Shown here in pieces: positions 21,024-38,459 of a stretch of 64,000 nucleotides of DNA. The position numbers and the translations under genes are program-made. Source of the DNA: Flavobacteriales bacterium (GTDB taxonomy: Bacteria; Bacteroidota; Bacteroidia; Flavobacteriales_F; PHOS-HE28); the NCBI GenBank assembly GCA_016700415.1, contig CP065018.1, positions 3,244,420 through 3,308,419 on the forward strand, read 5' to 3'. Numbering within the stretch: the first letter of the stretch is position 1; the number at the start of each line of letters is the position of its first letter. The notes below the pieces were generated by a model. That model had not been told where the DNA came from and searched no databases. It saw only the letters and a program-made list of their open reading frames with translations.

Positions 21024-22892
21024 ATGAAGCGCACGCACTGGTTGGTCCTTTTCCTGTTGCTCGGGAGTTTCTCCCGAGCGACGGACCAACAACGGATCGA
21101 CTCCTTGCTGGCCGTGTCCCGGACCATCCCGGTGGCTCCGGCACAAGTGCGGGCCTTGAACCGGATATCGGTGATCTATGCGGGCCGGCGATCCCGATCG
21201 GCCAAGGATTCGTCCATGTTCTATTCCCAGCAGGCCATTGCGTTGGCGCGGCGGATCGGCGATGAAGAGGGGCTTGCGGAGGCGCTCTACGATCTTGGGA
21301 AATACTACGTGGGCGTGGCCGGAAGTCCTGCCAAGGCCACGGAGAACCTGCTGGAAAGCCTTGAACTGTACACACAGCTCAACGACCGGTCGGGCATTTC
21401 CATGTGCCACATGCAGCTGGGCCTGGTCAGCTACATACTGAAATATTACGAGGACGCGGTGAAGAACCTGGACCTCTCGCTCAAGGCGGAGGATAACCCG
21501 ACCGCCACCTACCTGATGGCACTGTCCTACACGGAACTCGACAGCTTTTCGCTCGCCAAGGCGTACTTCTCCCGCGCCATCACCGACTATACGGACCGTG
21601 CGAACGCCGAACGGTTGGCCGAATGCCACTTGTACTTGGGGCGCTTGTACCTACGGACGGGGGCGCTGGACTCCGCCCTGTACTACATGAAGATGGCCAT
21701 GGAAAGCAGGGCCCTGGTCGGGGATCCACGGGACATGGTGCGACCCTATGCGTTCGTGTCGGAGGTCTATCTCCGGTCCAACGATCTTGACCGGGCCATC
21801 CACTTTGCAGAACGCAGCTATGAGCTGGAAACAGGCCAGCAGGACAAGAACCAGGACATGATCAGTTTGATCCAAGCGACCAAGACCTTGAGCGAAGCGT
21901 ACGCCTTGAAGGGGCGCTACGAGAAGGCCTATTTCTTCCTGGACCTGTACAACAAGGCCAGCGACCGGGATGCGAGAGGCAGCATCAAGCAGAAGGTCGC
22001 CGACATGCAGAGCATGTTCGATTTTGAACAGCGCATGAACCTGCAGCAGGTGCGGCAGGAGAAGGACCGGGAGATCGCCCAAGCGCAGATCGCGAAGGAA
22101 AGGATACTGCGGAACGCCTTCCTGGTGGGGACGGTCCTGTTGCTGCTGCTGCTGATCGGGCTGTACAAGCGTTACCGGTTCAAGCGGCGCTCCAATCAGA
22201 CCTTGGTGGAGCTCAATGAGGAGGTGACGCGGGAGAAGGAACGCTCGGACCATCTGTTGCTGAACATCCTACCGGAGGACGTGGCCGAGGAGCTGAAGAT
22301 GAACGGTGAGGCGGCGGCGCGATCCATCGAGCATGTCACGGTCCTGTTCACCGACTTCAAGGGCTTCATCGCCGTGAGCGAACAGTTGGGCCCGAGGGAG
22401 CTCGTACATGCCCTGAACGAGTGTTTCTCGGCCTTCGATGGGATCATGGAGAAGTGGGGCATAGAGAAGATCAAGACCATCGGTGATGCGTACATGGCGG
22501 CGGGAGGGTTGCCATTACCGGACGAGGGGCATGCCCGGAAGGTGATCCACGCGGCCTTCGAAATGCGCGACTTCGTGGAAGCGGAAAAGGCGCGGAAGAT
22601 CGCGGCCGGGGCACCGTATTTCGAGATCCGTATCGGCATGCATACCGGACCGGTGGTGGCGGGCATCGTTGGCGTGAAAAAATTCCAGTATGACATCTGG
22701 GGCGATACGGTGAACACGGCGAGCCGAATGGAAAGCAGCGGCGAGGTCGGAAAGGTCAATATCAGCGGGTCCACCTACGCGCTGGTGAAGGATGATCCGG
22801 AGTTCAACTTCACACCGCGCGGTATGATCGAGGCGAAAGGCAAGGGAGAGATGGAGATGTATTTCGTGGAGCGCGCTCCTGATAGAGGCTGA
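21024..22892 (+). CDS. TPR-repeat sensor / transmembrane / class III adenylate cyclase
   Basis: Signal peptide, TPR helices, TM AFLVGTVLLLLLLIGLY. LFTDFKGF, IEKIKTIGDAYM and YDIWGDTVNTASRMES give a full catalytic set with ATP-type Lys/Asp. Confidence 0.9.
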   Translation: MKRTHWLVLFLLLGSFSRATDQQRIDSLLAVSRTIPVAPAQVRALNRISVIYAGRRSRSAKDSSMFYSQQAIALARRIGDEEGLAEALYDLGKYYVGVAGSPAKATENLLESLELYTQLNDRSGISMCHMQLGLVSYILKYYEDAVKNLDLSLKAEDNPTATYLMALSYTELDSFSLAKAYFSRAITDYTDRANAERLAECHLYLGRLYLRTGALDSALYYMKMAMESRALVGDPRDMVRPYAFVSEVYLRSNDLDRAIHFAERSYELETGQQDKNQDMISLIQATKTLSEAYALKGRYEKAYFFLDLYNKASDRDARGSIKQKVADMQSMFDFEQRMNLQQVRQEKDREIAQAQIAKERILRNAFLVGTVLLLLLLIGLYKRYRFKRRSNQTLVELNEEVTREKERSDHLLLNILPEDVAEELKMNGEAAARSIEHVTVLFTDFKGFIAVSEQLGPRELVHALNECFSAFDGIMEKWGIEKIKTIGDAYMAAGGLPLPDEGHARKVIHAAFEMRDFVEAEKARKIAAGAPYFEIRIGMHTGPVVAGIVGVKKFQYDIWGDTVNTASRMESSGEVGKVNISGSTYALVKDDPEFNFTPRGMIEAKGKGEMEMYFVERAPDRG

Positions 22893-22929: not shown

Positions 22930-25605
22930 TTAGGGCAGTTGTTCGGTGATCACGGTCGTGGGCGATAAGCCACCGATGTTCAGCAGCAGCAGGTCCCGGT
23001 CGTTGTCCGCACCGGTGTACTTCACCGTTCCGTCCATGTTCGCATCCTCGCGGTGGTAGCCCGTGCTTGTGGCGGTGGGCATCACGCCCCCGACCTCCTG
23101 AAGGATGAGGTCGCGGTCGTTGTTGTCGCCGGTGTACTTCAGCTCGCCATCGCCTTGGCAATCACCTGCCCAAAGCGCGCGCCGTGTACCGATCGTGGCT
23201 TGCGCATCGGTGCCGTACGTGGCGGTGCCCGGTATGCTGAAGTCGACGACCGTCGTGGTGTTGCCCAAGGCGAAGGATGCATTGCTCATCACCCCCAAGT
23301 GGTTCCTGTGGCGAAGAGCGACATGGTAGTTCCCCGCCGCGATGTTGAAGAATACCGGACCGGTCCCGCTGGTGCCGGCCACATCACCGTCGCGTTGCAG
23401 CAAGGCGCTTTTCGTCGCCACCACGGCATATGGTGCCGTGCTGCTCCGCAATTCCACCACCACCCAGTCCACGATGGCATCATCGCCGCTCACGGCCAGC
23501 ACCGCGGACGTCGTGGTCTCCCCACCACCGTTCACATGGGGATAGCCCAATGCGGTGTAGGGTTCAGTGAACGGGATCAGCTCTGCGGCGCGCAGGCCGT
23601 CGCTCATGCGTTGCGTGGCTTCCTCGTAAGGCCCGCCCAATAGCATTCGGGGTGAAATGGCCACACCCGGAGATGCAACGGTCAGGATGGATGGATCCGT
23701 GATCACCGGCGGGTTGAAGTCGAAGAAGATGTTGGCGATGTTCTCGATGGTCGTTCCGGGCACCACCGGGTCACGAGGCTTGATGCGGAAACTCACGAAG
23801 CCATGGCTTGCTGCTTCGTTCACGTTGCTGTCCGGCAAGAAGATGTTCGCGAACGTGAAGCGCAGCACCCCGTGCCCCAGCAAGCTGCGCGTAGCGGCGT
23901 GCGAACTGGCACCCCATTGGATGGACGCAGGGTCCAACGTCGCAGGAAGCGTATCCGTCACGATCACATTGAAGGCGGTGTCCGTTCCGGTGTTCTGGAA
24001 GCGGATGGTGTAACCGATCCTTTCATCGGAGTTGATGAAGTAGAGCTCATCACTGGCGCGCGAGCTGGTGGTGGCCACCTTGTCGTTGGGGTCGAAGCTG
24101 CCCGTTACGGTCACGCTGGTGCTTGCTGTGTTGTTGGCAGCGATCACATCCGTGTTCGCGGTGGAGAACACCACCGAAGCATTCAGCACCGTACCGATCA
24201 AACCCACATCGGGCGGCACTTGCATCCGCACTTGGATGCTCCTTTGGGCGAATGCACTGAGGCTGCCCTGGTCCCATGTGATCGTGTTCCCCGCCACGGT
24301 ACCCGCCGGGCTCGATGAGAGCACTGTTATCGCCGGGTCGAAAGTGAAGGTGGTGACCGTGTTGCCGGTTACCGCTGGCGTGAGGTTCGATTGGCGGATG
24401 GCGTAGTTCAATTCGAAGCCGGGACGCGCCGGTCCACTGGCGATCCTCACCTCGGCATCCAGCGGCACCAAGGAAGTGTCGGCGATGTTCAGCGTTTGCA
24501 TGCCAACAACGTTCACAGGAGCCGGAGGTGTCGGGCAATGCTGCGCGATGTCCGTGGCGATCTGTTCCACGGTGTAGGCACCGGTGGGCAGGTTGATGCT
24601 GTACTTCCCGTTCGATGCCGCGGTGGCATAATAGGGCCCGGGTTGGAATTCCAGGATGGCACCGGGCACGCGCGTCTCACTGCTGCCGCCCATGACGCAG
24701 TCCGCGTTGTTGTCCATGTACACCGTGCCGTTCACATTGCCGCATGCCGGGCCGAGGTCGGGCACGGTCACCATGATCGAATCGCCGCATTGGGCACGCA
24801 GGAAGGTGCCGTTCGGGCCAGAGCCCAGACCGATGATGCGTTGCACCAGCCAGTAATCGCCGGGAAGGAGGCCGGTGAACGTGCTCGTCATGGCGGTAGG
24901 GCCGGAGTATGCGTTCTGCACCACTTGGCCGGTGGAATTTTTCAATTCGAGGTCGAGGACCTGGCCGTGCCCTTCAGCTGTAAGCGCCACATCGAGGCTT
25001 CCGGTTGCCGTTGATGCGCAAGCTCCTTCGATGTTCAACACGGCCATTGCGGGAAAGATCACCGGATACCCGATGTGCAGGGTCACCGATCCCAAGCAGC
25101 CATTCCCGTCGGCATACGCGGTCTGGAATGAACTGCCGGGCGCACCTTGCACCACGACAAGGATGTCGCCGCCCATGTCCTCGGTCACCACGCCCCCGAG
25201 GGAGATCGGGCCCTGGATCGGAAGGTCATAATTCCCTGATGCGAATTGCCACGGGCTGAAGGTGGCGAAGCTGTGCGGATCGCAATACGCCCAAGGCACA
25301 TCCCAGTCCCTGTTCGGAAATTCCGCATAGCCGTCCACTGTGGCCTCTTCCGTGGCCTGTGTGCCCATGAAGTCGGTAACGGTCAAGCTGTAGGTGCCTG
25401 CTTCCACATTCCATAGTTCCGGGGAAGTGGACCCGTTGCTCCAGGCGTAGGTGTAGGGTGGCACACCTCCGCTCGCATAGGCGGATACTTGGCCATTGGG
25501 AACCCCGCAATATTGATGGACAATGGAGAACGTCACGGTAAGCGCGTTCGCTGCACCAGCGTACAGTGCCAAGGCGATCAATAGTTGGTTGCGGAACGAC
25601 TTCAT
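22930..25605 (-). CDS. Secreted SprB-repeat / DUF11 / DUF7619-type protein (array member 6) with dockerin/EF-hand-like C-terminus
   Basis: SGGVPPYTYAWSNG, GSFDPNDK...YTIRFQNTGTDTA, tail with two DxxxDGxxKYTGxxNDRD repeats. Confidence 0.85.
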   Translation of the reverse strand: MKSFRNQLLIALALYAGAANALTVTFSIVHQYCGVPNGQVSAYASGGVPPYTYAWSNGSTSPELWNVEAGTYSLTVTDFMGTQATEEATVDGYAEFPNRDWDVPWAYCDPHSFATFSPWQFASGNYDLPIQGPISLGGVVTEDMGGDILVVVQGAPGSSFQTAYADGNGCLGSVTLHIGYPVIFPAMAVLNIEGACASTATGSLDVALTAEGHGQVLDLELKNSTGQVVQNAYSGPTAMTSTFTGLLPGDYWLVQRIIGLGSGPNGTFLRAQCGDSIMVTVPDLGPACGNVNGTVYMDNNADCVMGGSSETRVPGAILEFQPGPYYATAASNGKYSINLPTGAYTVEQIATDIAQHCPTPPAPVNVVGMQTLNIADTSLVPLDAEVRIASGPARPGFELNYAIRQSNLTPAVTGNTVTTFTFDPAITVLSSSPAGTVAGNTITWDQGSLSAFAQRSIQVRMQVPPDVGLIGTVLNASVVFSTANTDVIAANNTASTSVTVTGSFDPNDKVATTSSRASDELYFINSDERIGYTIRFQNTGTDTAFNVIVTDTLPATLDPASIQWGASSHAATRSLLGHGVLRFTFANIFLPDSNVNEAASHGFVSFRIKPRDPVVPGTTIENIANIFFDFNPPVITDPSILTVASPGVAISPRMLLGGPYEEATQRMSDGLRAAELIPFTEPYTALGYPHVNGGGETTTSAVLAVSGDDAIVDWVVVELRSSTAPYAVVATKSALLQRDGDVAGTSGTGPVFFNIAAGNYHVALRHRNHLGVMSNASFALGNTTTVVDFSIPGTATYGTDAQATIGTRRALWAGDCQGDGELKYTGDNNDRDLILQEVGGVMPTATSTGYHREDANMDGTVKYTGADNDRDLLLLNIGGLSPTTVITEQLP

Positions 25606-27851
25606 TTACCAGCTTCTTTAATGAATGATGCGGTGGTGCTGCCCTTTGTTCCGATCGTCCGCAGCAAGTAGGTGCCATTGGCCAAGGTGGAGATGTCGAT
25701 CCCTTCCGCTCCGGAGGTGAGCGTTGCTTGAAGGACGATCCTGCCGTCCACGGCTTGAATGGTGATGTAGTATGGCGTGCCTCCGCACTCCGGGCAAGAA
25801 GCGTAGATCCGGTCGCTCGCCGGGTTCGGGTACACCTTGGACCCGTCCCTCATCACTTCACCCACCGCCGTACTGAAGTCCGCCACCAGCACGCTCGGCT
25901 CGGTGGTCACCGGCGGGTTGAAATCGAAGTAGATGTTGGCGGAATTGCTGATCTCCGTTCCCGGCAACAGGGGCAGCACCGGACGAATGCGGAATGTCAC
26001 TTGCCCATGACTGCGGCCCTCGTTCACGTTGCTGTCCGGAAGCAGGATGTTGGCGAAGCGCCACTCCACGGTACGGCCGGGTTTGAAGCTTACTTCGAAC
26101 GGATGCGATGCGATCCCTTGTTCAAAGGTTCCCATGTCCAAGGTCGCAGGAAGTACATCGCGGACCACCACGGTGAAGGCTGTATCCGTACCTGTGTTCT
26201 GGAAGCGGATGGTGTAGTCCATCCATTCGTCCTGATCGATGAAATAGAGGCTCTCGCTCGCACCGGTGCTGGTGTGCACCAACTTGTCGTTCGGGTCATA
26301 GCTCGCGGTGAACACGGCATTCCATGTGGCTGCGTTGTTCGCGAGATCGGATTCGGTAATGCTTTGGCTGGCACTTGCCAGATGGCTGAAGGGTAGCCCG
26401 AAGAGCCCAATGTCGGCCGGGACCTGCAGCAGGACGGATGCTTCCACTTGATCAAATCCATTGAGCGCAGGCAAGCTCCAGGTCACCGTATTACCCGCCA
26501 CGGAAAGCGGTGCAGGTTCCGCGCTGATGAAACTCATTTGCGGATCGAATTCCATCGTGGCCGTGATCGATCCGGAAGCTTGTCCACTCGTGTTCCGAAT
26601 ACGCATCCATGTGCTGTGTTCGAAACCGATCCGTGCAGGTCCGGCGCTGATCGTGGTGACCAGGTCCAAGGGCACGAGGCTGCTATCGGCCACATTCACC
26701 ACTTGGTTCACGCCACTAACGACCACAGGTATCGGCTGCACAGTAGGACAGATCGGGTAGAGTTCCGTGCCCGTGCCTTCCACTTCCATGCTGTAACTCC
26801 CATTGGCCAAATTGATCCCGTAATTCCCGTTCGAACTGGTGATCGCATAGAATGGACCCGGTGTGAATTCGATGAGCCGGTGACGCAAGGCCGGATCGTT
26901 CGCATCCTTCACACAATCCTGGTCGTGATCGATGAAGACCTGCCCGCTCACTTGTGCGCATTGACCCAGCCAATCCGGAACTTCCACATACATGGAATCC
27001 ACACAGTAGAGCTGGCCTCCTTCATCATTGGGCACCGTGCCGAGGATATCCGGATCGGTGATGATCCAATACGCTCCCGCAGCGAGGTTGGAGAAGTTGA
27101 AGGAGGTGTTGTTGGATACGTCCTGACCACCAAAGTTGAATTGTTGACTGGGAGGGATCTGTCCATTCAATGTGCGGATGTTCACCCGGAAGTATTGCCC
27201 GGAAGCCACGCCACTCACCGCTACACTGATGCGTCCGTTGCTCCCATTACACGCACCCAGCACACTAGGGATCTGCACGGTCGGTTGCACGAATGTGGAC
27301 GAGAGCTGCAGGTAGGTCGATCCCGGACAGCCACTACCATCGGTCCAATCCACCGTTACCCAGCTCCCCGGGGCCGTATCCATCCAGATCGCGTAGTAGC
27401 TGTATTGGGCACTCATATCACTGAAGTTGCCGAACAAGGTGCCCGGCGTGGTGATCGAATGTGGCTCGGGTCCATGGTGCGGGTCATCCAAGTAGACAAA
27501 GGCATAAGGGTCGTCTCCGGGGCAATTCACGAGGCCGTCGAACCCGCCCTGATAATTCGGGTGAAAGCTGGTCACGAGGATCTCCTCATCGTCCGTGGCC
27601 ATGTCGCTCAGCGCGTCGGTCACAGTAACCGAATAGATGCCCGGTGGCAGGAATTCGATCACCGGGTCGGTGGAACCATTGCTCCACAGGTAGGTATATG
27701 GCCCTGTTCCTCCGGAGACTTCCGCAGTGAGGTAGCCCAGAGACTGGCCGCAAGGTGCATCCGAGGCCTTCCAAATGCTCACTGAAACCGCAGAACATGG
27801 GAGCGAGCAGAGCAGGAATGTCGCCAAGGCGATCGTGTTGTTCCGGTTCAT
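25602..27851 (-). CDS. T9SS-secreted SprB-repeat / DUF11 / DUF7619-type protein (array member 5)
   Basis: SGGTGPYTYLWSNG, ASYDPNDK...YTIRFQNTGTD, CTD VYPNPASD...GTYLLR. Confidence 0.85.
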   Translation of the reverse strand: MNRNNTIALATFLLCSLPCSAVSVSIWKASDAPCGQSLGYLTAEVSGGTGPYTYLWSNGSTDPVIEFLPPGIYSVTVTDALSDMATDDEEILVTSFHPNYQGGFDGLVNCPGDDPYAFVYLDDPHHGPEPHSITTPGTLFGNFSDMSAQYSYYAIWMDTAPGSWVTVDWTDGSGCPGSTYLQLSSTFVQPTVQIPSVLGACNGSNGRISVAVSGVASGQYFRVNIRTLNGQIPPSQQFNFGGQDVSNNTSFNFSNLAAGAYWIITDPDILGTVPNDEGGQLYCVDSMYVEVPDWLGQCAQVSGQVFIDHDQDCVKDANDPALRHRLIEFTPGPFYAITSSNGNYGINLANGSYSMEVEGTGTELYPICPTVQPIPVVVSGVNQVVNVADSSLVPLDLVTTISAGPARIGFEHSTWMRIRNTSGQASGSITATMEFDPQMSFISAEPAPLSVAGNTVTWSLPALNGFDQVEASVLLQVPADIGLFGLPFSHLASASQSITESDLANNAATWNAVFTASYDPNDKLVHTSTGASESLYFIDQDEWMDYTIRFQNTGTDTAFTVVVRDVLPATLDMGTFEQGIASHPFEVSFKPGRTVEWRFANILLPDSNVNEGRSHGQVTFRIRPVLPLLPGTEISNSANIYFDFNPPVTTEPSVLVADFSTAVGEVMRDGSKVYPNPASDRIYASCPECGGTPYYITIQAVDGRIVLQATLTSGAEGIDISTLANGTYLLRTIGTKGSTTASFIKEAGK

Positions 27852-30034
27852 GGATGTGTGGATCTGAGCAAGGTGATGGTGCTGACACCTTCGTTGGTCT
27901 GTAGACGGAGCATGTACGCTCCGGTAGCAGCCGTGTGGATATCAATGGTCTCTTCGCTGCCTGTGGTTCGTCCGTTCAGCACAATTCGGCCATCCGCTGC
28001 AACGAGCGCCCATGGTGCATTGATAGGGGTTCCAGCGGGCCAACTCACACGTACGTGGTCATTGGCAGGGTTCGGGTACAACTTCACTCCATCCCGCTGT
28101 CGTTCCACCATCCCCGTACTGAATTCCGCCACCAATACGCTCGGATCGGTGATCACCGGCTCGTTGAAGTCGAAGTAGATGTTGGCGATGTTCTCGATGG
28201 TGGTACCGGGAAGCAGTGGCAATACCGGTTTGATCCGGAAGGTCACCAGACCGTGGCTCGCGGCCTCGTTGGCATTGCTGTCCGGCAGGTTGATGTTATC
28301 GAAGCGCCACTCCACCACCCTACCGGGCTTGAAGGAAACATCGAATGCATTTGACGCGACACCTTGCTCAAAACTCAGCATGTCCAGGTCCTCGCTGAGC
28401 GTATCGGTAACGATCACGAAGTAGGCTTCAGCCGTTCCTGTGTTCTGGAATCGTATCGTGTAGTCGATGTATTCGTCCACATCGATGAAGTAGTTGCTTT
28501 CGCTGCTGCGCGAACTGGTCAGAGCGGTCTTGTCGTTCGGGTCGAAACTGCCGACCACCGTTGCAAGGACAGTACGCGTGTTGTTCGTCAGGTCCGGTTC
28601 GGGTTCCGTGTTGGACGCAGTGATGGAATGGGTCAAGGTCGTGCCAAGCGCTGTGCCTACTGGTACGTTGGCCACCACATGCATAGCTTCACCTTGGAAG
28701 CTGGTGAATGCGGGGAACTCCCACGTCAACGTATTCCCGATCACCGTACTGGGAGTCGGTATTGCACCGAGATAATCGACCGCAGGATCAAGCGTCATCG
28801 ATACGGAAACAGCTCCGCTCAGCTGCGGTGATCGGTTCCCCACACTACCGTGAATGGTGACATCGAAGCCCGGCCTGGACTGCCCGGAAGCGATGGAAAC
28901 ACCTAGGTCAAGAGGAGCTGTACTTCCATTGGCGAAGTCGATCACGGTCGTGTTCGCGTTCACTGTGAACGGCACGGGTTGGGTTGCGGGGCAGATCGGG
29001 ATCAACGTCGGGTCGGTCTGTTCCAGTGTGTAATTGCCATTGATGAGTGGGAAAAAGAATGACCCAATTGGGTTGGTCAAAAGCACATCACCGCTGGGTT
29101 GAAGCAAGAGTGGACTGTATGGAATGCCGACCTCATCCACATCACGAATGCAATCGCCGTTGGAGTCGTACCAGCTGGTTCCGGAAACCCATCCACATGC
29201 CGGACCAAGGCTCGGGACCGTGAACCAAAGTGTGTCATGATCACAAGGCCCGACAAGCAATTCGATCGTAAGTCCAAGACCCCATGTGATGCCATAGTTC
29301 CCGGGGAATATGGATGTGATCGTCCCGTCCAAGGTACCGGGGTCCACATTCCCGGAACTGACCAATGCCCCGCTCTCATTGACAAGCATGATGTATGCGT
29401 CGTTCACAGTGCTTGGAACTTGGTAGCTCACACTCCCGGTGCTCTGATTGGAGCAAGAAGGCTCAATGTTCGTGATCGTCAACGTAGGCCACGTGGTGAT
29501 CTGCGGGCCGATGATCCCGCTGATCGTTCCGGTACAGCCATTACCATCCGCAAAGTCGTAGGTATAGGTTCCGCTACCGGGGGGGGAGAAGACGAATAGT
29601 CCCTGAACGCTCCCCGGCGCTGGGTCCATGGGTACGCCGTTCACATACCACGGCTCAACGGCACCGGGTGGTGGCTCGAAATCACCCCCCGGGAAGAGCT
29701 GTGCGGGTGCATCGCAATACGGCCAGGGCTGGCCCATATTGATCACATAGGGAATGGAGGCGACAACGGTTTGGTCACTGACCTGATCACTGTTCGAATC
29801 CGTCACGGTCACCGAATAGTTTCCGTTAACGAGGTTCGTGCGGTACCCCTCTGTGTTTCCGTCGCCCCACAGGTAGGTGTATGGTGGCAAGCCACCCGAC
29901 ACGTTCACAACGATCTCCCCGTTCCCGTAACCACAACGCTCGTGGGAAACGAGCAGGGACATGGATAGGGGATCCGCACTGCAAAGTGTCGGAATTGGTG
30001 CGGCAAACAGGAAAAGGCGTAATGCCCAATTCAT
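27848..30034 (-). CDS. T9SS-secreted SprB-repeat / DUF11 / DUF7619-type protein (array member 4)
   Basis: SGGLPPYTYLWGDG, GSFDPNDK...YTIRFQNTGT, CTD LYPNPAND...GAYMLR. Confidence 0.85.
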   Translation of the reverse strand: MNWALRLFLFAAPIPTLCSADPLSMSLLVSHERCGYGNGEIVVNVSGGLPPYTYLWGDGNTEGYRTNLVNGNYSVTVTDSNSDQVSDQTVVASIPYVINMGQPWPYCDAPAQLFPGGDFEPPPGAVEPWYVNGVPMDPAPGSVQGLFVFSPPGSGTYTYDFADGNGCTGTISGIIGPQITTWPTLTITNIEPSCSNQSTGSVSYQVPSTVNDAYIMLVNESGALVSSGNVDPGTLDGTITSIFPGNYGITWGLGLTIELLVGPCDHDTLWFTVPSLGPACGWVSGTSWYDSNGDCIRDVDEVGIPYSPLLLQPSGDVLLTNPIGSFFFPLINGNYTLEQTDPTLIPICPATQPVPFTVNANTTVIDFANGSTAPLDLGVSIASGQSRPGFDVTIHGSVGNRSPQLSGAVSVSMTLDPAVDYLGAIPTPSTVIGNTLTWEFPAFTSFQGEAMHVVANVPVGTALGTTLTHSITASNTEPEPDLTNNTRTVLATVVGSFDPNDKTALTSSRSSESNYFIDVDEYIDYTIRFQNTGTAEAYFVIVTDTLSEDLDMLSFEQGVASNAFDVSFKPGRVVEWRFDNINLPDSNANEAASHGLVTFRIKPVLPLLPGTTIENIANIYFDFNEPVITDPSVLVAEFSTGMVERQRDGVKLYPNPANDHVRVSWPAGTPINAPWALVAADGRIVLNGRTTGSEETIDIHTAATGAYMLRLQTNEGVSTITLLRSTHP

Positions 30035-30039
30035 GGGGG

Positions 30040-32328
30040 TCAGTATTTGGTGAACCGTTTTGTGATCCTGGTGCCGTCGTCGAAATGCAGTTCTGCGAAG
30101 TAGACGCCGGCCGGTAAGCCGGCGGTGTCCATGGAGATGGTAGAACCTTGATGCTTGCTAACGGCGATGGATCGGCCATCCGCAGCGAACAGCCGAAGTG
30201 ATGTGATGGATCCGCTCGTTACTGCAATGGTGATCCGGTCATGCGCCGGGTTGGGCGAGAAGGACACTCGGCGGTCGACTACGTTACCCGCAACGCCCGT
30301 GCTGAACTCCGCCACCAGCACGTTCGGCCCGGTGATCACCGGTTCATTGAAGTCGAAATAGATGTTGGCGGTATTGGCGATCTCGGTTCCGACAAATAGC
30401 GGTTGCATCGGCTTGATGCGGAAGCTCACCAAGCCGTGGCTCAGTGCCTCGTTCGTTGTGCTGTCCGGAAGCAGAATGTTCGAGAAACGCCACTCCACCA
30501 CACGGCCCGCCTTGAAACGAACATCGAACAGGTGGGAAGCCGCACCTTGCTCAAAGCTCGACATGTCCAATGCTGCGCTCAACGTGTCTGTTATGATCAC
30601 GGTGAAGGCGGTATCGTTCCCGGTGTTCTGGAAGCGGATGGTGTAATCGATATGATCGTCCTGATCGATGAAATACTGCGTATCGCTCAGTCCACTGCTG
30701 GTGCGCGCGATCTTATCGTTCGGGTCCAACGATGCGGTAACCACGGTGCCCGCGTTCACTGCATTGTTGGTGTAGTTGCTTTCAGCGAGAGTGTTGGAGA
30801 CGCTCAGGGCATGGACCACCGGCGTACCCACCGCAGTGCCGACAGGAACAAGTGTTTCCACGGACAGCTGTGCTGAACCGAACAGGCCGAATGCCGGAAG
30901 TTCCCACGTCAGCGTGTTGCCCACTACCGTGGTCGGTGCAGGCGTGGCGTTCACATAGTTGACGTCGTTATCCAGGATCAGCGTAATGGTAACAGCACCG
31001 CTCTGTTGCGGAGCGAAGTTGTGGACCAGGGCATGGACGAGGCTGATGGATCCCGGTCGCGCAGCGCCGCACGACGCGAAGGCAACAAGGTCCAACGGAT
31101 GGGTGCTTCCATTGGCCAGGTCGATCGTGGTCCCGTCATCATTCACGGTGAACGGGACCGGCTGGACCACGGGACAAATGGGGATGAGCGAAGGATCCGA
31201 CTGCGTAAGTGTGTAGGAACCGTCAACGAGTTCGAACTGGTAGGTACCATCCGCGCCGGTGAGGGCCCATTCCGGTCCGGGCTCGATCCGTAGCGTGGTG
31301 TAGGGTATGCCAACATCCTCGGCATCGAGCACACAATCGCCATTCACATCGTACCAGCTTGTTCCGGCAACAGTGCCACAGGATACGCCGATGTCCGGGA
31401 TGGTGAACATCACCGAGTCGGCGCAAGTCCCTATAAAGCTCGGCAGCACACCGAAGAGGCAATACTCGTCCACGTCCAGCACGGCCCAGTAGTCTCCCGG
31501 CGCCAGTATGGAGAAGGGAATGTTGAGGCCGGAGAATCCTCCGGGCTGTTCACCCAGACAAGGCGTCTCGTAGACAACCACACCCGATGCGTTCTTCAAG
31601 GCGAAGTGCAGGTCGTTGTCGTTCGGAACTGCGGGCACGTATACTGTGGCCGTACCCGTGGCACCATCGCTACAGGAGCCGCCGATGCCCGAAATGGTGA
31701 TCGCAGGCAATACGACGGGTTCATGGATGTTCCAGAAGAAAGATCCCGGGCAGCCCAAGGCATCGGTGTAGAAGATGTGCGTTGTCCCCGGCGGATCGTT
31801 GATCTCGATCACATACCATTGTCCGTTCTGCGAGATCGATTGCCCCAACACCCCGCTGCCGGAGAACGTTGCCGGTGCGATGGGATTGAGCCCACCGGCA
31901 TCATCGACCGGGAAAAGGGCATATCCCTCACCGTATGTGCATGAACTCATGGTGGCCACCGGGAACACCTGCGGGTACTCGCTCACGAAGGTCACATCGG
32001 CGGAGGCCTGCGCCGTAGTACCGTCATCGTCCGTGACCGTGACCGTATACGTACCCACCGGCAGGTCAAAGATCGTGTTCGTGGTAGCCCCATTGCTCCA
32101 AGCGATCGTGTAAGGCGGAACACCACCGCTCGGTTGGGCCCTCATGGAACCGCGTGCTTGCCCACAGGGAGCTTGACCTTGATAAACGGTGATGGAAACG
32201 GAAAGGCACCAAGCGGATGTGCCGAAGGCCAAAGCCACGCACAGCAATGCTGATCGGTGCAACATGTTCAAGGATCGTGCTGATATGCAGAGCATGATCC
32301 GATCCATGGTGGGTGTGCTTGTGTTCAT
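30040..32328 (-). CDS. T9SS-secreted SprB-repeat / DUF11 / DUF7619-type protein (array member 3); start may be 32265
   Basis: SGGVPPYTIAWSNG, ASLDPNDK...YTIRFQNTGND, CTD FSPNPAHD...GVYFAE. Confidence 0.85.
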   Translation of the reverse strand: MNTSTPTMDRIMLCISARSLNMLHRSALLCVALAFGTSAWCLSVSITVYQGQAPCGQARGSMRAQPSGGVPPYTIAWSNGATTNTIFDLPVGTYTVTVTDDDGTTAQASADVTFVSEYPQVFPVATMSSCTYGEGYALFPVDDAGGLNPIAPATFSGSGVLGQSISQNGQWYVIEINDPPGTTHIFYTDALGCPGSFFWNIHEPVVLPAITISGIGGSCSDGATGTATVYVPAVPNDNDLHFALKNASGVVVYETPCLGEQPGGFSGLNIPFSILAPGDYWAVLDVDEYCLFGVLPSFIGTCADSVMFTIPDIGVSCGTVAGTSWYDVNGDCVLDAEDVGIPYTTLRIEPGPEWALTGADGTYQFELVDGSYTLTQSDPSLIPICPVVQPVPFTVNDDGTTIDLANGSTHPLDLVAFASCGAARPGSISLVHALVHNFAPQQSGAVTITLILDNDVNYVNATPAPTTVVGNTLTWELPAFGLFGSAQLSVETLVPVGTAVGTPVVHALSVSNTLAESNYTNNAVNAGTVVTASLDPNDKIARTSSGLSDTQYFIDQDDHIDYTIRFQNTGNDTAFTVIITDTLSAALDMSSFEQGAASHLFDVRFKAGRVVEWRFSNILLPDSTTNEALSHGLVSFRIKPMQPLFVGTEIANTANIYFDFNEPVITGPNVLVAEFSTGVAGNVVDRRVSFSPNPAHDRITIAVTSGSITSLRLFAADGRSIAVSKHQGSTISMDTAGLPAGVYFAELHFDDGTRITKRFTKY

Positions 32329-34589
32329 GGTCGGGAGAGTTTTTGGAATGGGATGGTATACCGCCGTTGAGCGGTGAACAGCGTGATCAGGTAGATGCCG
32401 TCGCTAAGGGATCCGACATCCACTGATCCGGGCTCGGTGTTGAACATCCCTGAGGCCAGCCTTCGCCCATCCATGCTGGTGATGGTCCACCGCGCGTTCG
32501 GCATACCGCTCAGTGCAATGCTATTGATCGCGGGATTAAGAAAAAGCTTCACCTCGGACAGATGTTCATCAATACCCGTACTGAACTCCGCAGTAAGTAT
32601 GCTCGGCGCGGTGATCACGGGATCATTGAAGTCAAAGAAGATGTTCGCGGTGTTGGTTATCTGCGTGCCCGCTGTGAGCGGAAGGCGCGGGCGGATACGG
32701 AAGGAGACGAAGCCGTGGCTGGCCGCTTCGTTGGAATTGCTATCGGGGAGCATGATGTTCGGAAAAATGAACTTCAGTAGGCCTTGGCCGCTCAACGAAC
32801 GCGTGCCCGTGTGTGAAAAAGCGCCCCACTGCACCGTGGCCGGGTCAAGCGTGTTCGGCAAGGTGTCCGTGATGATCACGGTAAAGGCCGTGTCAGTACC
32901 CGTGTTCTGGAAGCGGATGGTGTAGTCGATCCATTCATCCACATCGATGAAGTACTGCGTGCTGCTGGACCGACTGCTTGTGGTGGCGACCTTGTCGTTC
33001 GGGTCGAAGCTGCCTGTAACGAGCTGGGCCGATGTGGCCGTGTTGTTCGCAAGGTCGATCTCCGGATTCGCGGTGGTCAGTTCAATGGAGGTGTTCAAGG
33101 TGCTTCCGATCAACCCGACATCCGATGCCACCAGGAAATCCACGCGGAAGTCGATCGCTTGAAAGACCGAATTCATCATGAGCTGCGGTGCGGTCCATGT
33201 GATGGTGTTGCCCACCACCGAGGTTGGCGTTCTTGTCGCGTTCAAGTACGTCAGGTCCGGGTCGAATTCCATGGAGAGCGTCACCGTGCCAGGCGAGGCC
33301 GAGGTAAGGTTCTGCAGGTGAATGCCATAGCGCAACTCGAAACCGGGCCGTGCCGGACCGTTCGCAATGGCCACCTCTACATCCAAGGGCACACCGCCTT
33401 CGCAACCGATGTTCAAGGTCTGTGTAACTCCGGCATTGATCGTCACATCTCCCGGGCAAGACTGGGTGAATGTGGGGTTCTGCTCTGTGAACGTGTAGTC
33501 GCCGAAAGGCAGTGCAAGGGTGTAGAGCCCAGTGCTCGATGTGGTCACGTAGGTGGGTCCGGGAGTGATGGCGATGATGCTGGAAGGGATGCGGTTCTCA
33601 CCGCCGTTCCGGATGCAGTTCGCATTCTCATCGATGTACAACTGACCGGTCACCACCCCGCAATCCTCCGTCAACGCGGGTACAGTCACCATGATCGAGT
33701 CCTTGCACTCCAGATAGGAATAGGTGCCCTCTTGAAAGATCCCGAGGGCATCGCTGCTCATAATGAGCCAATAATCCCCTGCTTCCAGATCACTGACCGT
33801 CTGTCCCGTGGTCCCACTAGCAAGATCGTAACTATAGTTCAAGTGACCACAGGAAGAAGGATCGCCATCGGAGCGCCAACGGATGGAGTAACTCGAATTG
33901 ATGTCGGTTCCTTGGCAAGCGAAGGTGAAGGAGCCCGTGGTGTAGTTGGGACAACTGGGAGATACATCGATCACCTGCAGGTCCGGCCAGGTCATTTCGC
34001 CACCAAGGACCACGTCGAAGGTGCCCGGGCAGCCGTTCGCGTCGGTATAGTCGAGTTGGTAGGAGCCGGGCTGCACACCATCAAAGGTCAAGAGTTCCCA
34101 GACGACCCCGTTCGGATCATTGCACGAGGTGGATTGCCCCAAATGCGTTAGTCCCGGACCCGTGAAGCTGTAAGGGTTCGGGCCGTAGATGTCATCTTCC
34201 GGCGGTTGCACACCGGGTTGGTTCATACCTGTAAAGACCGCAAGGTGCATGGGATCTCCCGGACAGTGCATGAGGATCGGAGGCAGGTTCACTCCATAAT
34301 CGTAGCTGTTCAGCAAAGGCACCTCACCGTCCGCTGTGGCCTCGTCCAATTGCGAATCGGTGACCACCACCGTATACATGCCCGGAGGGAGCCCCGGGTT
34401 GTACTGTTCCGTGGAACCATTGCTCCATTGGACGTCGTAGGGAGGGACTCCTCCACTGACATTAGCTATGAGGGTCCCCGAGGCCCTGCCGCAATAGGAG
34501 GGCCTGACCACACTGATCGTGACCGTGAGCGCTTGTATTGCGATGGATGCGAACAAAGCCGTAGTGAAGAGTAGAGGTCGTTTCATCAT
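32325..34589 (-). CDS. T9SS-secreted SprB-repeat / DUF11 / DUF7619-type protein (array member 2)
   Basis: SGGVPPYDVQWSNG, GSFDPNDK...YTIRFQNTGTD, CTD LFLNPAIN...GIYLIT. Confidence 0.85.
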   Translation of the reverse strand: MMKRPLLFTTALFASIAIQALTVTISVVRPSYCGRASGTLIANVSGGVPPYDVQWSNGSTEQYNPGLPPGMYTVVVTDSQLDEATADGEVPLLNSYDYGVNLPPILMHCPGDPMHLAVFTGMNQPGVQPPEDDIYGPNPYSFTGPGLTHLGQSTSCNDPNGVVWELLTFDGVQPGSYQLDYTDANGCPGTFDVVLGGEMTWPDLQVIDVSPSCPNYTTGSFTFACQGTDINSSYSIRWRSDGDPSSCGHLNYSYDLASGTTGQTVSDLEAGDYWLIMSSDALGIFQEGTYSYLECKDSIMVTVPALTEDCGVVTGQLYIDENANCIRNGGENRIPSSIIAITPGPTYVTTSSTGLYTLALPFGDYTFTEQNPTFTQSCPGDVTINAGVTQTLNIGCEGGVPLDVEVAIANGPARPGFELRYGIHLQNLTSASPGTVTLSMEFDPDLTYLNATRTPTSVVGNTITWTAPQLMMNSVFQAIDFRVDFLVASDVGLIGSTLNTSIELTTANPEIDLANNTATSAQLVTGSFDPNDKVATTSSRSSSTQYFIDVDEWIDYTIRFQNTGTDTAFTVIITDTLPNTLDPATVQWGAFSHTGTRSLSGQGLLKFIFPNIMLPDSNSNEAASHGFVSFRIRPRLPLTAGTQITNTANIFFDFNDPVITAPSILTAEFSTGIDEHLSEVKLFLNPAINSIALSGMPNARWTITSMDGRRLASGMFNTEPGSVDVGSLSDGIYLITLFTAQRRYTIPFQKLSRP

Positions 34590-34703
34590 CGGCGGGATCG
34601 GTTTCTATGGGTAAGACGCAAGAAAGCGGATCGGATGTCTCAATTGGTTCAACTTACTGGCCCGACTGCTCGGACAACAACACATCAGAGATCGCTCCCT
34701 GAC

Positions 34704-36887
34704 CTAGTTCTTCACGAAGGTCGAACGCAAGCGATGGCCATCCTCCCGCAAGACCTCCAGAATGTAGATGCCTGCGATCAGTCGGGCCACATCCAGCATC
34801 TGCCGGGTTCCTTGTGCGCGTAGTTCCTGTGCCACCCGTCCATCCGTGCTCAGCAACCTCGTCCCGACCATTCGTTGAACGCTCGTAACGTGAAGCATGT
34901 CGCTCGCCGGATTGGGGTGGAGCCGGAGTCCCTCTTTTCCATTTTCTTGCACCTCCGTACTGAACTCCGCCACCAGCACGCTCGGCTCCGTGATCACTGG
35001 TTCGTTGAAATCGAAATAGATATTCGCGGTGTTCTCGATCACGGTGCCCGGCAACACCGGTTCATTCAACTTGATGCGGAAGCTGGTCAGTCCGTGGCTC
35101 GCCGCTTCGTTCACGTTGCTGTCGGGCAAGAGGATATCATTGAATGTCCATTCCACCACGCGGCCTGCTTTGAAATCAACGGTGCAAGGGTGGCTGCATA
35201 CACCGGGTTGGAAGCTGCTCATGTCCAGCTCGGCGCTTAGTGTATCGGTGATCACCACCGTGAAGGCGGGATCCGTGCCGGTGTTCTGGAAGCGGATCGT
35301 ATAGTCGATGTATTCATCGTTGTCGATGAAGTAAAGCTCATCGCTGGCCCTGGTACTTGTTCGTGCGGTCTTGTCGTTCGGGTCGTAGCTGCCGGTAACG
35401 GTCACGTGTTCTGTGTTGCTGTTGTTCGTGTAGTCCGTTTCGGTCAGCGTGTTCGTTGCACTGAAGGAGCTGGTGAGCACCGTGCCCAATAGCGTGCTTA
35501 CCGGAATGTTGAACTGCACCGAGACGTGCGCGTATTCGAACGAGGTGAATGGCGGCAACTCCCAGGTGAGGACGTTGCCCACAATGCTGGTGGGAACAGG
35601 CGACGCTTCCAAATACGTCATGGAAGGATCGTAGGTGAGCGATGCACTCACGGGTCCGCTCACCTGTGGTGTGGTGTTCCGCACTTGTGCGAAGAGCGTG
35701 TGGTCGAAGCCGGGCCGTGCCCGGCTACCGTTCAGCCATGTGCGCAGATCCAACTCGGTGCTACTTCCATTGGCCAGTTCGATATTCACTGGAGTGCTGC
35801 CGATGATGAAAGGCACGGGTTGCACGACGGGGCAGATCGGCAACAGGGTAGGGTCCGCCTGTTCCAAGGTGTAGTTGCCGTCGGGCAGATCCATGCTGAA
35901 GGTGCCATCGTATTGCGTCAACGCGAAATAGCCGCCGGGTTCTATAGCGAGTACACTATTCGGAATGCCCACTTCACCGGCATCGCGGATGCAATCGCTA
36001 TTCGGGTCATACCAACTGATGCCGGTCAAGGTGCCGCATTCGGTACCGAGGTCGGGTATGGTGAATTGCAGATCTTGGACGCACTGGGCAGGGGGCCAGG
36101 TCGCATGGAGGTCATAGGTGCCCGGAGCAAGGTTCATGAACCGTACACTGTTTGAGGACCAATCCTCGCCGGGTTGCACCAATTGGCCGTTCAGCCGCAC
36201 TTCGATGAACTGTTGGAACTCCTGGGTCTGAAAGTCGAAGAGCGCACTTCCGCCCATACCTCCAGAACAGGATCCTACAACATCCGATTGTTGGAGGTAG
36301 TTGCCCGCGTTGAAGGTGGCAATGTAGGCGTAGCCCGTGCCGGTGCAGCCTAGGGCATCTTCCATGAAGTACGTAACTAGGTCATCTGCACAAAAGCCAC
36401 CGTACACCGGGCGGCCGGAGGGTTGTTCGTAGCCGAGGATATTCGCACCGCTCGGGAACGAGTAGGTCATCGGGCCGGTACCGCTTTGCAGATCATCGAT
36501 CATCAGCATCGCGCCATTGCATTCGCCGGGGCAAGCGTGGCCCATGTACCCGATAATGGGTTCCAGGGCAGAGAACAGCCCACCGTACCCCTCCATCAAA
36601 TTCGCGAGATCATCCACGATGCCGCTTTGCACCGCTGTGGCCAGCAGAGCATCCGTCACGGTCACTTCGTAGGTGCCGGCTTCCAAGTTGGTCAAGCTAT
36701 CGATGGTGGCCGTGAAACCATTGGGTCCGGTCCACGCATAGGTGTAGGGTCCGGTGCCGCCGTATGGAATAGCCCAAGCCGTACCATTCGCGTTGCCGCA
36801 GGTCTCCGGGACCACGTTCACGATCACTTGCAAGGCAGCGCTGGCAGGTAGGGAGAAGGCGAGCGCAAGGAGTAGGAGTATCCGCAT
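34704..36887 (-). CDS. T9SS-secreted SprB-repeat / DUF11 / DUF7619-type protein (array member 1)
   Basis: Signal peptide MRILLLLALAFSLPASA (ATG 36887), GGTGPYTYAWTG, GSYDPNDK...YTIRFQNTGTD, CTD LHPNPASD...GIYILE. Confidence 0.85.
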   Translation of the reverse strand: MRILLLLALAFSLPASAALQVIVNVVPETCGNANGTAWAIPYGGTGPYTYAWTGPNGFTATIDSLTNLEAGTYEVTVTDALLATAVQSGIVDDLANLMEGYGGLFSALEPIIGYMGHACPGECNGAMLMIDDLQSGTGPMTYSFPSGANILGYEQPSGRPVYGGFCADDLVTYFMEDALGCTGTGYAYIATFNAGNYLQQSDVVGSCSGGMGGSALFDFQTQEFQQFIEVRLNGQLVQPGEDWSSNSVRFMNLAPGTYDLHATWPPAQCVQDLQFTIPDLGTECGTLTGISWYDPNSDCIRDAGEVGIPNSVLAIEPGGYFALTQYDGTFSMDLPDGNYTLEQADPTLLPICPVVQPVPFIIGSTPVNIELANGSSTELDLRTWLNGSRARPGFDHTLFAQVRNTTPQVSGPVSASLTYDPSMTYLEASPVPTSIVGNVLTWELPPFTSFEYAHVSVQFNIPVSTLLGTVLTSSFSATNTLTETDYTNNSNTEHVTVTGSYDPNDKTARTSTRASDELYFIDNDEYIDYTIRFQNTGTDPAFTVVITDTLSAELDMSSFQPGVCSHPCTVDFKAGRVVEWTFNDILLPDSNVNEAASHGLTSFRIKLNEPVLPGTVIENTANIYFDFNEPVITEPSVLVAEFSTEVQENGKEGLRLHPNPASDMLHVTSVQRMVGTRLLSTDGRVAQELRAQGTRQMLDVARLIAGIYILEVLREDGHRLRSTFVKN

Positions 36888-37010
36888 GAAATGGTGGTTT
36901 CGGAATAAAGACGCGCAATAGGGTAAATGGTGGTCTGGAAATGCCACTATCGGGCAAGATATAGCGGGGCCGCCCTCCTCTTGCTCCCGTCCATCCACGA
37001 ACTTTGCACC

Positions 37011-37790
37011 ATGTGCTACGGAGTGAAGGCCCGCACGGAGATGTCCCTGCGCATCGCGAAGAGCCGCGGTAACACCGCCGCCGCTGAGCGTTTGGCACAA
37101 CTGCTCAACCCCTTCCCGGAGTTCGACCACCACTTCGCCAACGGCTTTGCGCACCCGGGCATGGTGGTGTACACCGATGCCGCGCCGCGCGATCCGCAGT
37201 TATCCTTTTGGGGCCTGGTGCCCGCATGGGTGAAGGACGACGCCCAGCGCAAGCAGCTCTGGAACCAGACCCTGTTGGCGCGCGGCGAGACCATGTTCGA
37301 CAAGCCTGCTTTCCGCACTTCCGCCATGGGAAAGCGGGCCATCGTGCATGTGGAGGGCTTCTACGAGCACCATCATTTCGGCAAGCGCACCTATCCGTAT
37401 TTCATCCGCCTGCGGGACCGCGACCACTTCGCGCTGGCCGCACTATGGGAGCAGTGGAAGGACCGGGAAAGCGGCGAAGTACTGCACACCTTCAGCATCG
37501 TCACCACGGAAGCGGACGAGCTGATGCGGCGCATCCACAACAACCCCAAGGCGGAAGGTCCGCGCATGCCGCTGATCCTCACGGAGGAGGAAGAGGAGCA
37601 GTGGCTCGCGCCGATCGCATCCCCTGCGGACGAAGCGGCGATCAACGCGTTGATCAAGCCCTATCCGGCGGACGCGCTGTTGGCGCATTCCGTGCGGCCG
37701 CTACTGGGCAAGGCCGGATCCGGCAACGTGCCGGAAGCCAGTGAGCCTTTCGAATACCCGGAGCTACAGCTCGCAGACCCGTTGGCGTGA
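37011..37790 (+). CDS. SOS response-associated peptidase (SRAP/HMCES/YedK) abasic-site processing protein
   Basis: MCYG start gives the required Cys2, then SFWGLVPAW, ARGET, GFYE and IHN...RMPLIL. Confidence 0.9.
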   Translation: MCYGVKARTEMSLRIAKSRGNTAAAERLAQLLNPFPEFDHHFANGFAHPGMVVYTDAAPRDPQLSFWGLVPAWVKDDAQRKQLWNQTLLARGETMFDKPAFRTSAMGKRAIVHVEGFYEHHHFGKRTYPYFIRLRDRDHFALAALWEQWKDRESGEVLHTFSIVTTEADELMRRIHNNPKAEGPRMPLILTEEEEEQWLAPIASPADEAAINALIKPYPADALLAHSVRPLLGKAGSGNVPEASEPFEYPELQLADPLA

Positions 37791-37835: not shown

Positions 37836-38459
37836 CTACGGCTTGAACCGGTACACATAGTTCTTATCCGGGCCGCAGACGGAAGGGCAGGGGAAGCCGC
37901 AAACCCGTACGAACTTGGGATCGCTGCCCAAGGGTTCCGCCTTGCCGCCTGTGATCTTCATGGCCGTCAGGCGCATGGTGGTCTCTCCTTTAGCGGTGTC
38001 CGGGGCGGCTTGGAGGGCTTGGCAACCTTGGAGATCCGTTAGCGCCTCGATCTCCGTGCGGGTGAACGAGGCGGAGTAGGAGGGATGGCCGGATGCCTGC
38101 ATGGATGAACAAGCCGTTTTAGCGTCCTTGGAGTTCAATGCGTTCATTTTGATCACGCCGTTCACAAAGCCTAAGCTGACCTGGTACGCATTGCCCTTGT
38201 TGATCTCGCTGCCATCGGCATGGATACCGATCGCCATGGCGCTGCCGTCCTTATTTTCAGGAGGCACGAGAACGTTGTAGAAGCGTACGGCCATGGCCTT
38301 GTCGTCCTTGAGCATGTCCGCGATCGTGGTGCTGTCGAACAGTGCCTCCGTGAAACCGGGATCAGTTGGCTTCGCGGCCGGTGCGGAGGGTTCCTGCCCC
38401 ATTAGGTTATGGATCGGCATCAGCAGGGCTAATACGGAGGCGGTGGCAAGTAAACGCAT
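37836..38459 (-). CDS. Secreted hypothetical protein with internally duplicated domain and C-terminal CGFPCPSVC motif
   Basis: Signal peptide. FDSTTIADMLKD...AVRFY resembles FTRTEIEALTDLQGCQAL. Cys-Pro-rich tail. Confidence 0.7.
   Translation of the reverse strand: MRLLATASVLALLMPIHNLMGQEPSAPAAKPTDPGFTEALFDSTTIADMLKDDKAMAVRFYNVLVPPENKDGSAMAIGIHADGSEINKGNAYQVSLGFVNGVIKMNALNSKDAKTACSSMQASGHPSYSASFTRTEIEALTDLQGCQALQAAPDTAKGETTMRLTAMKITGGKAEPLGSDPKFVRVCGFPCPSVCGPDKNYVYRFKP

Follow-up and report, generated by a model that had tools for sequence, protein, structure and literature searches.

Tandem genes for putative T9SS-sorted surface proteins in Flavobacteriales with apparent decoupling of heads and sorting domains

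SprB of Flavobacterium johnsoniae is a protein of several thousand residues with many repeats, a type B C-terminal sorting domain (CTD) and a partner protein, SprF. The stalks of fibrillar adhesins are stabilised by DUF11/CLIPPER, a domain for which a Lys-Asn bond has been demonstrated experimentally, and the closely related DUF7619, a new Pfam family, is predicted to carry an intramolecular isopeptide bond (bioRxiv 10.1101/2025.04.25.650565). Besides, surface-protein families are known to diversify by recombination: the surface virulence factors of Porphyromonas gingivalis exchange alleles and rearrange domains (PMC5266723), and in yeast, ectopic recombination creates chimeras in the FLO/ALS adhesin families (PMC3512402). 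Here we analyse a tandem array of six genes for DUF7619-containing proteins in a 64,000-nucleotide stretch of DNA from an uncultured Flavobacteriales bacterium of wastewater (GenBank contig CP065018.1, positions 3,244,420 to 3,308,419; hereafter the window). We read the products as rod-shaped surface proteins that would be exported by the Sec system and sorted by a type IX secretion system (T9SS), and the genes as members of an old family evolving by crossing-over at DUF7619, a reading to which we assign a probability of roughly 0.7. No paper on this family was found in the literature searched, in which DUF7619 occurs in a single work (a preprint and a PMC paper).

In the order of transcription, from g6 to g1, the array consists of six paralogous open reading frames (ORFs) of 727-891 amino acids (aa) on the minus strand, within positions 22930-36887. 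The first gene, g6 (34704-36887; 727 aa from the ATG at 36887), is followed by g5 (32325-34589; 754 aa), which has the same layout, g4 (30040-32328; 762 aa counted from the first ATG), g3 (27848-30034; 728 aa), g2 (25602-27851; 749 aa) and the last gene, g1 (22930-25605; 891 aa). The common layout comprises a signal peptide, a SprB repeat, a variable region of two Ig-like domains, a further Ig-like domain, DUF11, DUF7619 and a C-terminal module. In all six proteins a hydrophobic N-terminus ends in an A-x-A-like site, as read off the sequence, and Pfam matches were obtained to the SprB repeat (PF13573, one scored repeat per protein), weakly to SdrD_B/CarboxypepD_reg, and to DUF11 and DUF7619. 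The DUF7619 match is very strong in each of the six genes, with E values of 1e-40 to 1e-43 (g6 34986-35384, g5 32607-33005, g4 30331-30726, g3 28145-28543, g2 25899-26297, g1 23692-24093), and the variable region has no Pfam match.

A type A CTD was recognised in five of the six genes, above the Pfam PF18962 cutoff of 27 in g2, g3, g4 and g6, and by TIGR04183 in g5 (score 32.5, cutoff 23). For g1 no sorting-domain match was obtained at E<=0.01, nor for its C-terminal tail alone at E<=10, and none of the array proteins matched the type B CTD models (TIGR04131, PF13585). A preliminary description of this DNA, made from the sequence alone, had given all six genes one layout; it holds from SprB to DUF7619 throughout, and the sorting domain is confined to five genes, since g1 ends in a tail of 247 aa instead. 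The assignment of the six proteins as T9SS-type cargo, each with a presumably distal variable N-terminus on an Ig-like stalk, is supported by these features.

Divergence of the paralogs and exchange at DUF7619

Divergence along the six proteins is non-uniform, as had been expected. The mean identity over the 15 window pairs is 0.41 for SprB, 0.28 for the variable region, 0.38 for Ig, 0.39 for DUF11, 0.66 for DUF7619 and 0.26 for the CTD, and the corresponding values in a six-way alignment are ~0.45 for SprB, 0.22-0.29 with many gaps for the next ~200 residues, 0.35-0.43 for Ig/DUF11, 0.6-0.72 for DUF7619 and 0.18-0.25 for the sorting domain. The sorting domain is as diverged as the variable region. 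The truly conserved part of the stalk is DUF7619 only, and the idea of a conserved stalk has to be narrowed to this domain, Ig and DUF11 being only ~38% identical. At the DNA level, too, the window paralogs cross-match in the DUF7619 segment only, at 62-78% nucleotide (nt) identity. Within the variable region the previously noticed cysteine anchors, a lone Cys, a D-x-x-G-C motif and the cysteines that follow, are real: in 132 family members, C107, D163, G166, C167, C194 and C264 (numbered as in g3) are invariant or conserved to at least 90%.

What appears to be new here is that the head of a protein is not inherited with its own sorting domain, which travels with the head of the next gene; the preliminary description had missed this decoupling as well as the different tail of g1. 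In ortholog pairs the sorting domains are at background identity (0.29 vs 0.28), and only two of the 76 cross-genome head-orthologous pairs with comparable CTDs have a similar CTD. The heads, for their part, are unrelated in 75 of the 77 CTD-similar pairs. Where the neighbours of CTD-similar pairs are known, the downstream heads are orthologous in 7 of 15 cases, compared with 24 of the 2,731 background pairs (odds ratio 99; p=7e-11 by Fisher's test, with pairs that are not independent), and for head-orthologous pairs the downstream head is orthologous in none of 25. The CTD of g5, for example, matches L050:12124 at 60%, and the gene downstream of the latter is the ortholog of g4 (L-numbers denote compared loci or assemblies that carry family members).

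The unit of inheritance is offset from the gene: it starts at one DUF7619, takes in the sorting domain, the gap between the genes and the head that follows, and ends at the next DUF7619. One inherited block (25864-28553, minus strand) includes DUF7619 and the CTD of g3 (from residue 494) together with the head and DUF7619 of g2 (residues 1-663), and it is colinear with 2521-5214 of L012 over 2.7 kb at 75% nt identity; the head upstream of this block in L012 is g1-like, not g3-like. Residues 1-646 of g6 are colinear with 7775-9764 of L007 at 74% nt identity, the homology ending at the DUF7619 end, and residues 273-638 of g1 are colinear with genes that carry a type A CTD at their end, in L012 (1830-2932), L019 and L010. 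In a closer pair, L039 and L071, one array is without a whole unit and the junction lies inside DUF7619; positions 7034-7471 of L071 take part in the alignments to both the first and the second gene of L039, and a block of ~2.1 kb between two DUF7619 segments has been replaced.

Across the family, we also compared synonymous-codon identity with the expectation from codon usage. Synonymous sites come close to saturation in cross-species orthologs, which are only ~74-75% identical in nucleotides. Identical synonymous codons are most in excess in the last ~22 codons of DUF7619, with observed/expected ratios of 1.41-1.62, compared with 1.12-1.36 in the rest of DUF7619 and a gene-wide median of 1.04. 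The 72-nt 3' end of DUF7619 (ANIYFDFNEPVITDPSVLVAEFST; 28115-28186 on the minus strand in g3, with equivalents starting at 35027, 32648, 30369, 25940 and 23736) is the putative recombination junction, and its pairwise identity in the window averages 0.76 (range 0.58-0.89). The simplest reading of the mechanism is unequal crossing-over, plus occasional replacement, between tandem copies at DUF7619. CTD, gap, next signal peptide and next head would then be inherited together because the exchange falls at DUF7619, the sole segment that is similar enough.

The family in other genomes and the array within its species

The species-representative genomes yielded at least 545 encoded relatives, nearly all of them in metagenome-assembled genomes (MAGs) of uncultured Flavobacteriales. 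Most of the 22-kb loci are tandem arrays of 2-9 copies (range per locus 1 to 9); at least 13 copies stand in a row on JADJTW010000003 (overlapping loci L036 and L050), several MAGs have arrays on more than one contig, and L034 has two flank genes in common with the window, yet only 2 copies. Arrays vary between species in copy number and content and are fixed within the window's species. The preliminary expectation that relatives would not share an identical array is therefore borne out between species (1 to at least 13 copies) and fails within the species.

The nearest relative of every window paralog, and of every head region, lies in another genome, with heads 50-76% identical. The head orthologs are L012:3224 for g2 (76% in the head, 88% in DUF7619, CTD at the background of 0.24-0.36), L050:14407 for g4 (70%; SH-like support 99) and L054:9722 for g5 (62%). 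In the variable region, identity to the ortholog is 76% for g2/L012:3224, 73% for g4/L050:14407, 63% for g6/L007:7726 and 58% for g5/L054:9722. Placements in the head tree are given for g2, g3, g4 and g5, each of which falls inside a strongly supported clade of genes from other genomes (SH-like support 99-100), with g2, g4 and g5 each pairing with a single such gene. Same-genome paralogs, with identities of 0.39, 0.23, 0.37, 0.40, 0.64 and 0.30 for SprB, variable region, Ig, DUF11, DUF7619 and CTD, are no more alike than cross-genome non-orthologs (0.38, 0.23, 0.36, 0.40, 0.61 and 0.28 in the same order), which argues for little concerted evolution. Over 103 cross-genome ortholog pairs the values are 0.58 for the variable region, 0.67 for SprB, 0.76 for Ig, 0.71 for DUF11 and 0.80 for DUF7619; the variable region is the fastest-evolving head part between orthologs, yet clearly conserved. 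What these identities and trees show is, by all appearances, an old multigene family of anciently diverged copies, not a fast diversifier.

Within the species the array is present on at least 15 metagenome contigs, and the six that were compared are 99.89-99.98% identical to the window over 10-20 kb, which amounts to only 5-17 differences each. At least 20 DNA runs, from 14 studies of activated sludge, wastewater, freshwater and sediment, contain 0.98 or more of the array's sampled words. None of the few single-nucleotide polymorphisms (SNPs) falls in the variable region, the nearest being a third-position change at g6 residue 90. In assembly L005, five clustered substitutions in 12 nt (window 25906-25917, g2 residues 645-649) turn FDFNPPVTT of g2 into FDFNDPVIT, the motif of its paralog g5, possibly by gene conversion over a short tract at the 3' end of DUF7619. 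At residues 676-684 of g5 (32538-32562), the window itself differs from all six other assemblies and from an RNA contig at four clustered positions, reading T where the others have C on the coding strand (A vs G on the plus strand) and changing the CTD motif FPNP to FLNP; this is perhaps a variant of the assembly or of the strain behind the window.

The six same-strand paralogous ORFs and their couplings had been described correctly by coordinates. Four-nt ATGA overlaps join the genes at 25602 and 27848, and a gap of 5 bp lies at 30035-30039, while the g4/g5 overlap at 32325 is real only if the first ATG of g4 is taken as its start. Met22 of g4 (32265) is followed by a normal signal peptide (MLHRSALLCVALAFGTSAWC) and gives a length that agrees with the ortholog, and is the likely true start. 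In public gene calls g4 begins at Met62 (701 aa), with an antisense ORF of 61 aa across its 5' end (32145-32328); this start is probably a miscall, because the signal peptide and part of the SprB repeat would be lost. The gap after g6, of 114 nt, is the sole sizeable intergenic gap in the array. A hairpin resembling a terminator, with a T-rich run, stands at 34684-34703 (minus strand), directly 3' of the g6 stop codon, and g6 may be transcribed separately or attenuated. The total of terminator-like sites equals the shuffle expectation (12 vs 11.9 expected), and a sigma-70 promoter scan with a tool that does not cover Bacteroidota promoters returned one promoter-like site vs 7.4 expected.

In four activated-sludge metatranscriptomes, contigs were found over all six genes, and single contigs cross the junctions g4/g3, g3/g2 and g2/g1. 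Of the proposed co-expression, what these three bridged junctions make probable is co-transcription of the genes. Two RNA-contig joints that link DUF7619 of different paralogs (28297>35370 and 32720>35106) were rejected as recombinants and treated as most likely assembler chimeras at shared words, because their flanks are only 22-24 nt.

The array is flanked by a convergent gene for a TPR-adenylate/guanylate cyclase (20931-22892, plus strand) and by an SRAP peptidase gene (36927-37790, plus strand) that is divergent from g6, with 39 bp separating the start codons. Positions 36979-37790 of the latter are 87% identical in nucleotides to L021:1989-2800, the homology ending at the gene edges on both sides; the L021 SRAP gene borders an eight-gene array, none of whose eight heads is orthologous to the six of the window. 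A second TPR-adenylate/guanylate cyclase gene (38466-40523, plus strand) is a paralog of the first, so that the pair brackets the array region; it is adjoined by a gene for a 207-aa protein with no Pfam match (37836-38459). In addition, a T9SS type A cargo gene for a protein of 984 aa with CARDB, GEVED and Por_Secre_tail domains (4787-7741, plus strand) lies 15 kb from the array. As the preliminary description had it, no reverse transcriptase (RT) or recombinase is annotated among the genes at 17.5 to 44 kb of the window, and a search upstream for invertible elements or invertible-promoter repeats gave nothing convincing. A diversity-generating retroelement (DGR), a shufflon and a phase-variable locus were rejected in view of this lack of RT and recombinase, the inverted repeats, which are only short and imperfect, and the 99.9% identity across assemblies.

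Predicted structures and the g1 tail

An AlphaFold2 model of g3 was built on 132 homologs, with a mean predicted local distance difference test (pLDDT) score of 89.5. It is an all-beta string of seven sandwich domains, in which the first ~20 residues have low pLDDT. Compared with the PDB, the full-length model matched only generic multi-Ig rods, the T9SS-secreted GhpA among them, and the S-layer protein 7ptp was also among the structural matches. The variable region of g3 modelled alone (residues 92-278; 29201-29761, minus strand; pLDDT 83.4) forms two Ig-like sandwiches, of which the first has a long loop of lower confidence. In the PDB this region comes closest to tandems of titin, CEACAM and RAGE and to the base of GhpA (E ~1e-4, TM 0.25-0.38). 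A sequence search of DUF11 plus DUF7619 against the PDB returned nothing significant. K502, D544, N615 and N624 are invariant in the 132 family members, and the TIGR04226 match is weak; DUF7619 is predicted to be an isopeptide-stabilised domain.

The 247-aa C-terminal tail of g1 (22933-23673, minus strand) is an unannotated module with no match in Pfam (even at E<=10), NCBIfam or the PDB. It contains two dockerin-like Y-T-G-x-x-N-D-R-D loops; the dockerin family model does not match the tail, and the likeness consists of these two D/N-rich loops as read from the sequence. The tail matches 9,702 cluster representatives (50%-identity clusters) at E<=1e-3, and 2,324 at E<=1e-30; among the 120 best hits it stands at the C-terminus in 119. 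The proteins that carry it include trypsin-like, M36, reprolysin-like and subtilase peptidases, kelch and delta-60 repeat proteins, a lysyl oxidase with MAM, and a glycoside hydrolase, and no co-occurrence with PF18962 was seen among the hits examined. Of the 11 other family members in which such a tail was seen, six are last in their array and three have a family gene downstream. Because it is strictly C-terminal, sits on unrelated passengers and is never found with PF18962, we regard the tail as a candidate alternative C-terminal sorting or anchoring module.

Proposed role, alternatives and known systems

In established T9SS biology, cargo has its sorting domain cut off and is anchored to the cell surface by the C-terminus so created. 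By the same route, the array proteins would be exported through Sec and the T9SS, lose their CTD and become attached to the cell surface by the C-terminus, and DUF7619 would lie next to the cell with the variable domains pointing outward, because the new C-terminus is anchored after CTD cleavage. The DUF7619/DUF11 stalk may be hardened by isopeptide bonds, and the disulfide-stabilised variable Ig-like domains may give each paralog its own binding specificity in flocs. By analogy with known surface proteins, they most likely serve in attachment, be it to particles, to flocs or to other cells in activated sludge. Unequal crossing-over at DUF7619 would make chimeric genes and alter the copy number, and such exchange would also have swapped the type A sorting domain of g1 for the 247-aa module.

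Several observations weigh against this account. The longest exact nt matches between the window paralogs are only 14-27 nt, all of them in DUF7619, which suggests that recombination is rare now, and no recombination event was observed within the species. Breakpoints are resolved only to within or at the edges of DUF7619, because this domain is conserved in all copies. The metatranscriptome contigs are unstranded, of low depth and possibly contain DNA, and the flanking genes have a similar depth. In addition, the variable domains match no known adhesive, lectin, carbohydrate-binding module (CBM) or enzyme fold in the PDB fold search. The binding tips of the preliminary description thus stay putative, since the variable region is modelled as two Ig-like sandwiches and no known binding fold matches it.

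One rival reading, which follows that description, takes the N-terminal ~200 residues as hypervariable binding tips under diversifying selection, for adhesion or phage escape, with ongoing gene conversion. The variable region is indeed the least conserved head part (paralogs 0.23, orthologs 0.58 vs 0.71-0.80 for the stalk), and the paralog-like motif in g2 of L005 would be a possible micro-conversion, but an array that is 99.9% identical in six assemblies and near-identical in the 20 runs, a variable region without a SNP and cross-species orthologs that are 58-76% identical in it do not fit the word hypervariable. Recent gene-conversion tracts between the window's paralogs were looked for and none was found at their 62-78% nt identity, nor do the paralogs share long identical tracts (longest exact match 27 nt), so that of the two proposed routes of diversification duplication plus divergence stands and recent gene conversion does not; we consider hypervariable tips distinctly unlikely. 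We also considered a programmed, integrase-free cassette exchange, in which the DUF7619 3' end is kept constant in its DNA as a docking site for the trade of a CTD plus the next head, within species as well as between them. The excess of synonymous-site conservation is highest there (observed/expected up to 1.62), the block replacement in L039/L071 is bounded by two DUF7619 segments, and SRAP-adjacent arrays differ entirely in content despite SRAP genes that are 87% identical in nucleotides. Nevertheless, homologous recombination, if recurrent, would by itself bring down synonymous divergence at the junction as well, the neighbourhood has no dedicated recombinase, the 72-nt identity is only 0.58-0.89 and there is no within-species variation, and such a programme seems to us highly doubtful.

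Rather unlikely as well, though somewhat less so than these two, is that the proteins are not adhesins but a structural surface coat, redundant spacers or scaffolds of a protective or sieving layer or a T9SS cargo platform. A plain chain of Ig-like sandwiches without a recognisable ligand-binding domain would suit this role, as would the match to the S-layer protein; distal variable domains on an isopeptide-type stalk with a C-terminal anchor, however, are what defines fibrillar adhesins (bioRxiv 10.1101/2025.04.25.650565), and the long retention of many distinct head lineages speaks for distinct specificities, not redundancy. It is very hard to believe that the six products form one heteromeric fibre with the tail-bearing g1 as base or anchor, in the manner of a pilus operon. 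The genes are coupled and probably co-transcribed, and the tail-bearing member is last in six of the 11 other cases, as g1 is in the window, but this idea is rejected because the copy number varies, from 1 to at least 13; many arrays are without a tail-bearing member, three such members have a family gene downstream, and the tail occurs on thousands of unrelated enzymes. Finally, a bolder form of crossing-over at DUF7619 would make the array a head/tail reassortment device, with the DUF7619 3' end kept alike at the DNA level, cassettes of sorting domain plus next head exchanged within and between species, and heads re-addressed between two surface-attachment routes, the type A CTD and the 247-aa tail that stands in its place in g1 and on thousands of other Flavobacteriales proteins. 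We think this improbable on the whole, while giving it slightly more room than the surface coat.

Crossing-over at DUF7619 in an old family of T9SS-sorted surface proteins remains our preferred reading. The present data document a large surface-protein family specific to a lineage of uncultured Flavobacteriales and annotated at the domain level only, and they suggest a picture of array evolution in which a single conserved domain-coding segment is the only place of recombination and export tags are thereby reassorted with heads. They further suggest that another C-terminal module, very widespread and without annotation, can take the place of a T9SS sorting domain, and this 247-aa module is the more promising lead for new biology. 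The array reveals no new kind of system, because recombination at shared segments is familiar from other tandem families of surface proteins (PMC5266723, PMC3512402), and we see it as an ordinary adhesin-like family.

Among known systems, fibrillar adhesins with DUF11/CLIPPER, DUF7507 and DUF7619 stalks are like the array proteins in their signal peptide, distal N-terminal region, Ig-like CnaA-type stalk and C-terminal sorting domain (bioRxiv 10.1101/2025.04.25.650565). Their tandem stalks are long, whereas here one DUF11 and one DUF7619 are present, and the array proteins are without a known adhesive tip domain and are encoded in multi-gene tandem arrays. With SprB the array proteins have in common, judging by sequence, an N-terminal SprB-type repeat and T9SS dependence; they differ from it in their length of ~730 aa, in one scored SprB repeat and in a type A CTD. 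A SprB-type gliding adhesin was rejected for the array given the protein lengths of 727-891 aa, the single scored repeat and the lack of a type B CTD. GhpA of Aureispira (PDB 9flp, 9flw, 9fly), a T9SS-secreted Ig-like rod, is among the best structural matches to both models, but the similarity is that of generic Ig chains (TM 0.13-0.38, 12-16% identity), and GhpA has ~5,000 residues and forms hooks. As in T9SS type A cargo such as gingipains and RemA, five of the six array proteins have a type A CTD above the curated cutoff; in contrast to such cargo, g1 has another tail of 247 aa, and the array CTDs are apparently not co-inherited with their own protein. The P. gingivalis surface factors and the yeast FLO/ALS adhesins are likewise paralog families that recombine at conserved segments. 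In the array, however, exchange takes place at a single domain-coding segment, immediately ahead of the export tag, and the events are old, with blocks of ~75% nt identity, and lie between species, not strains.

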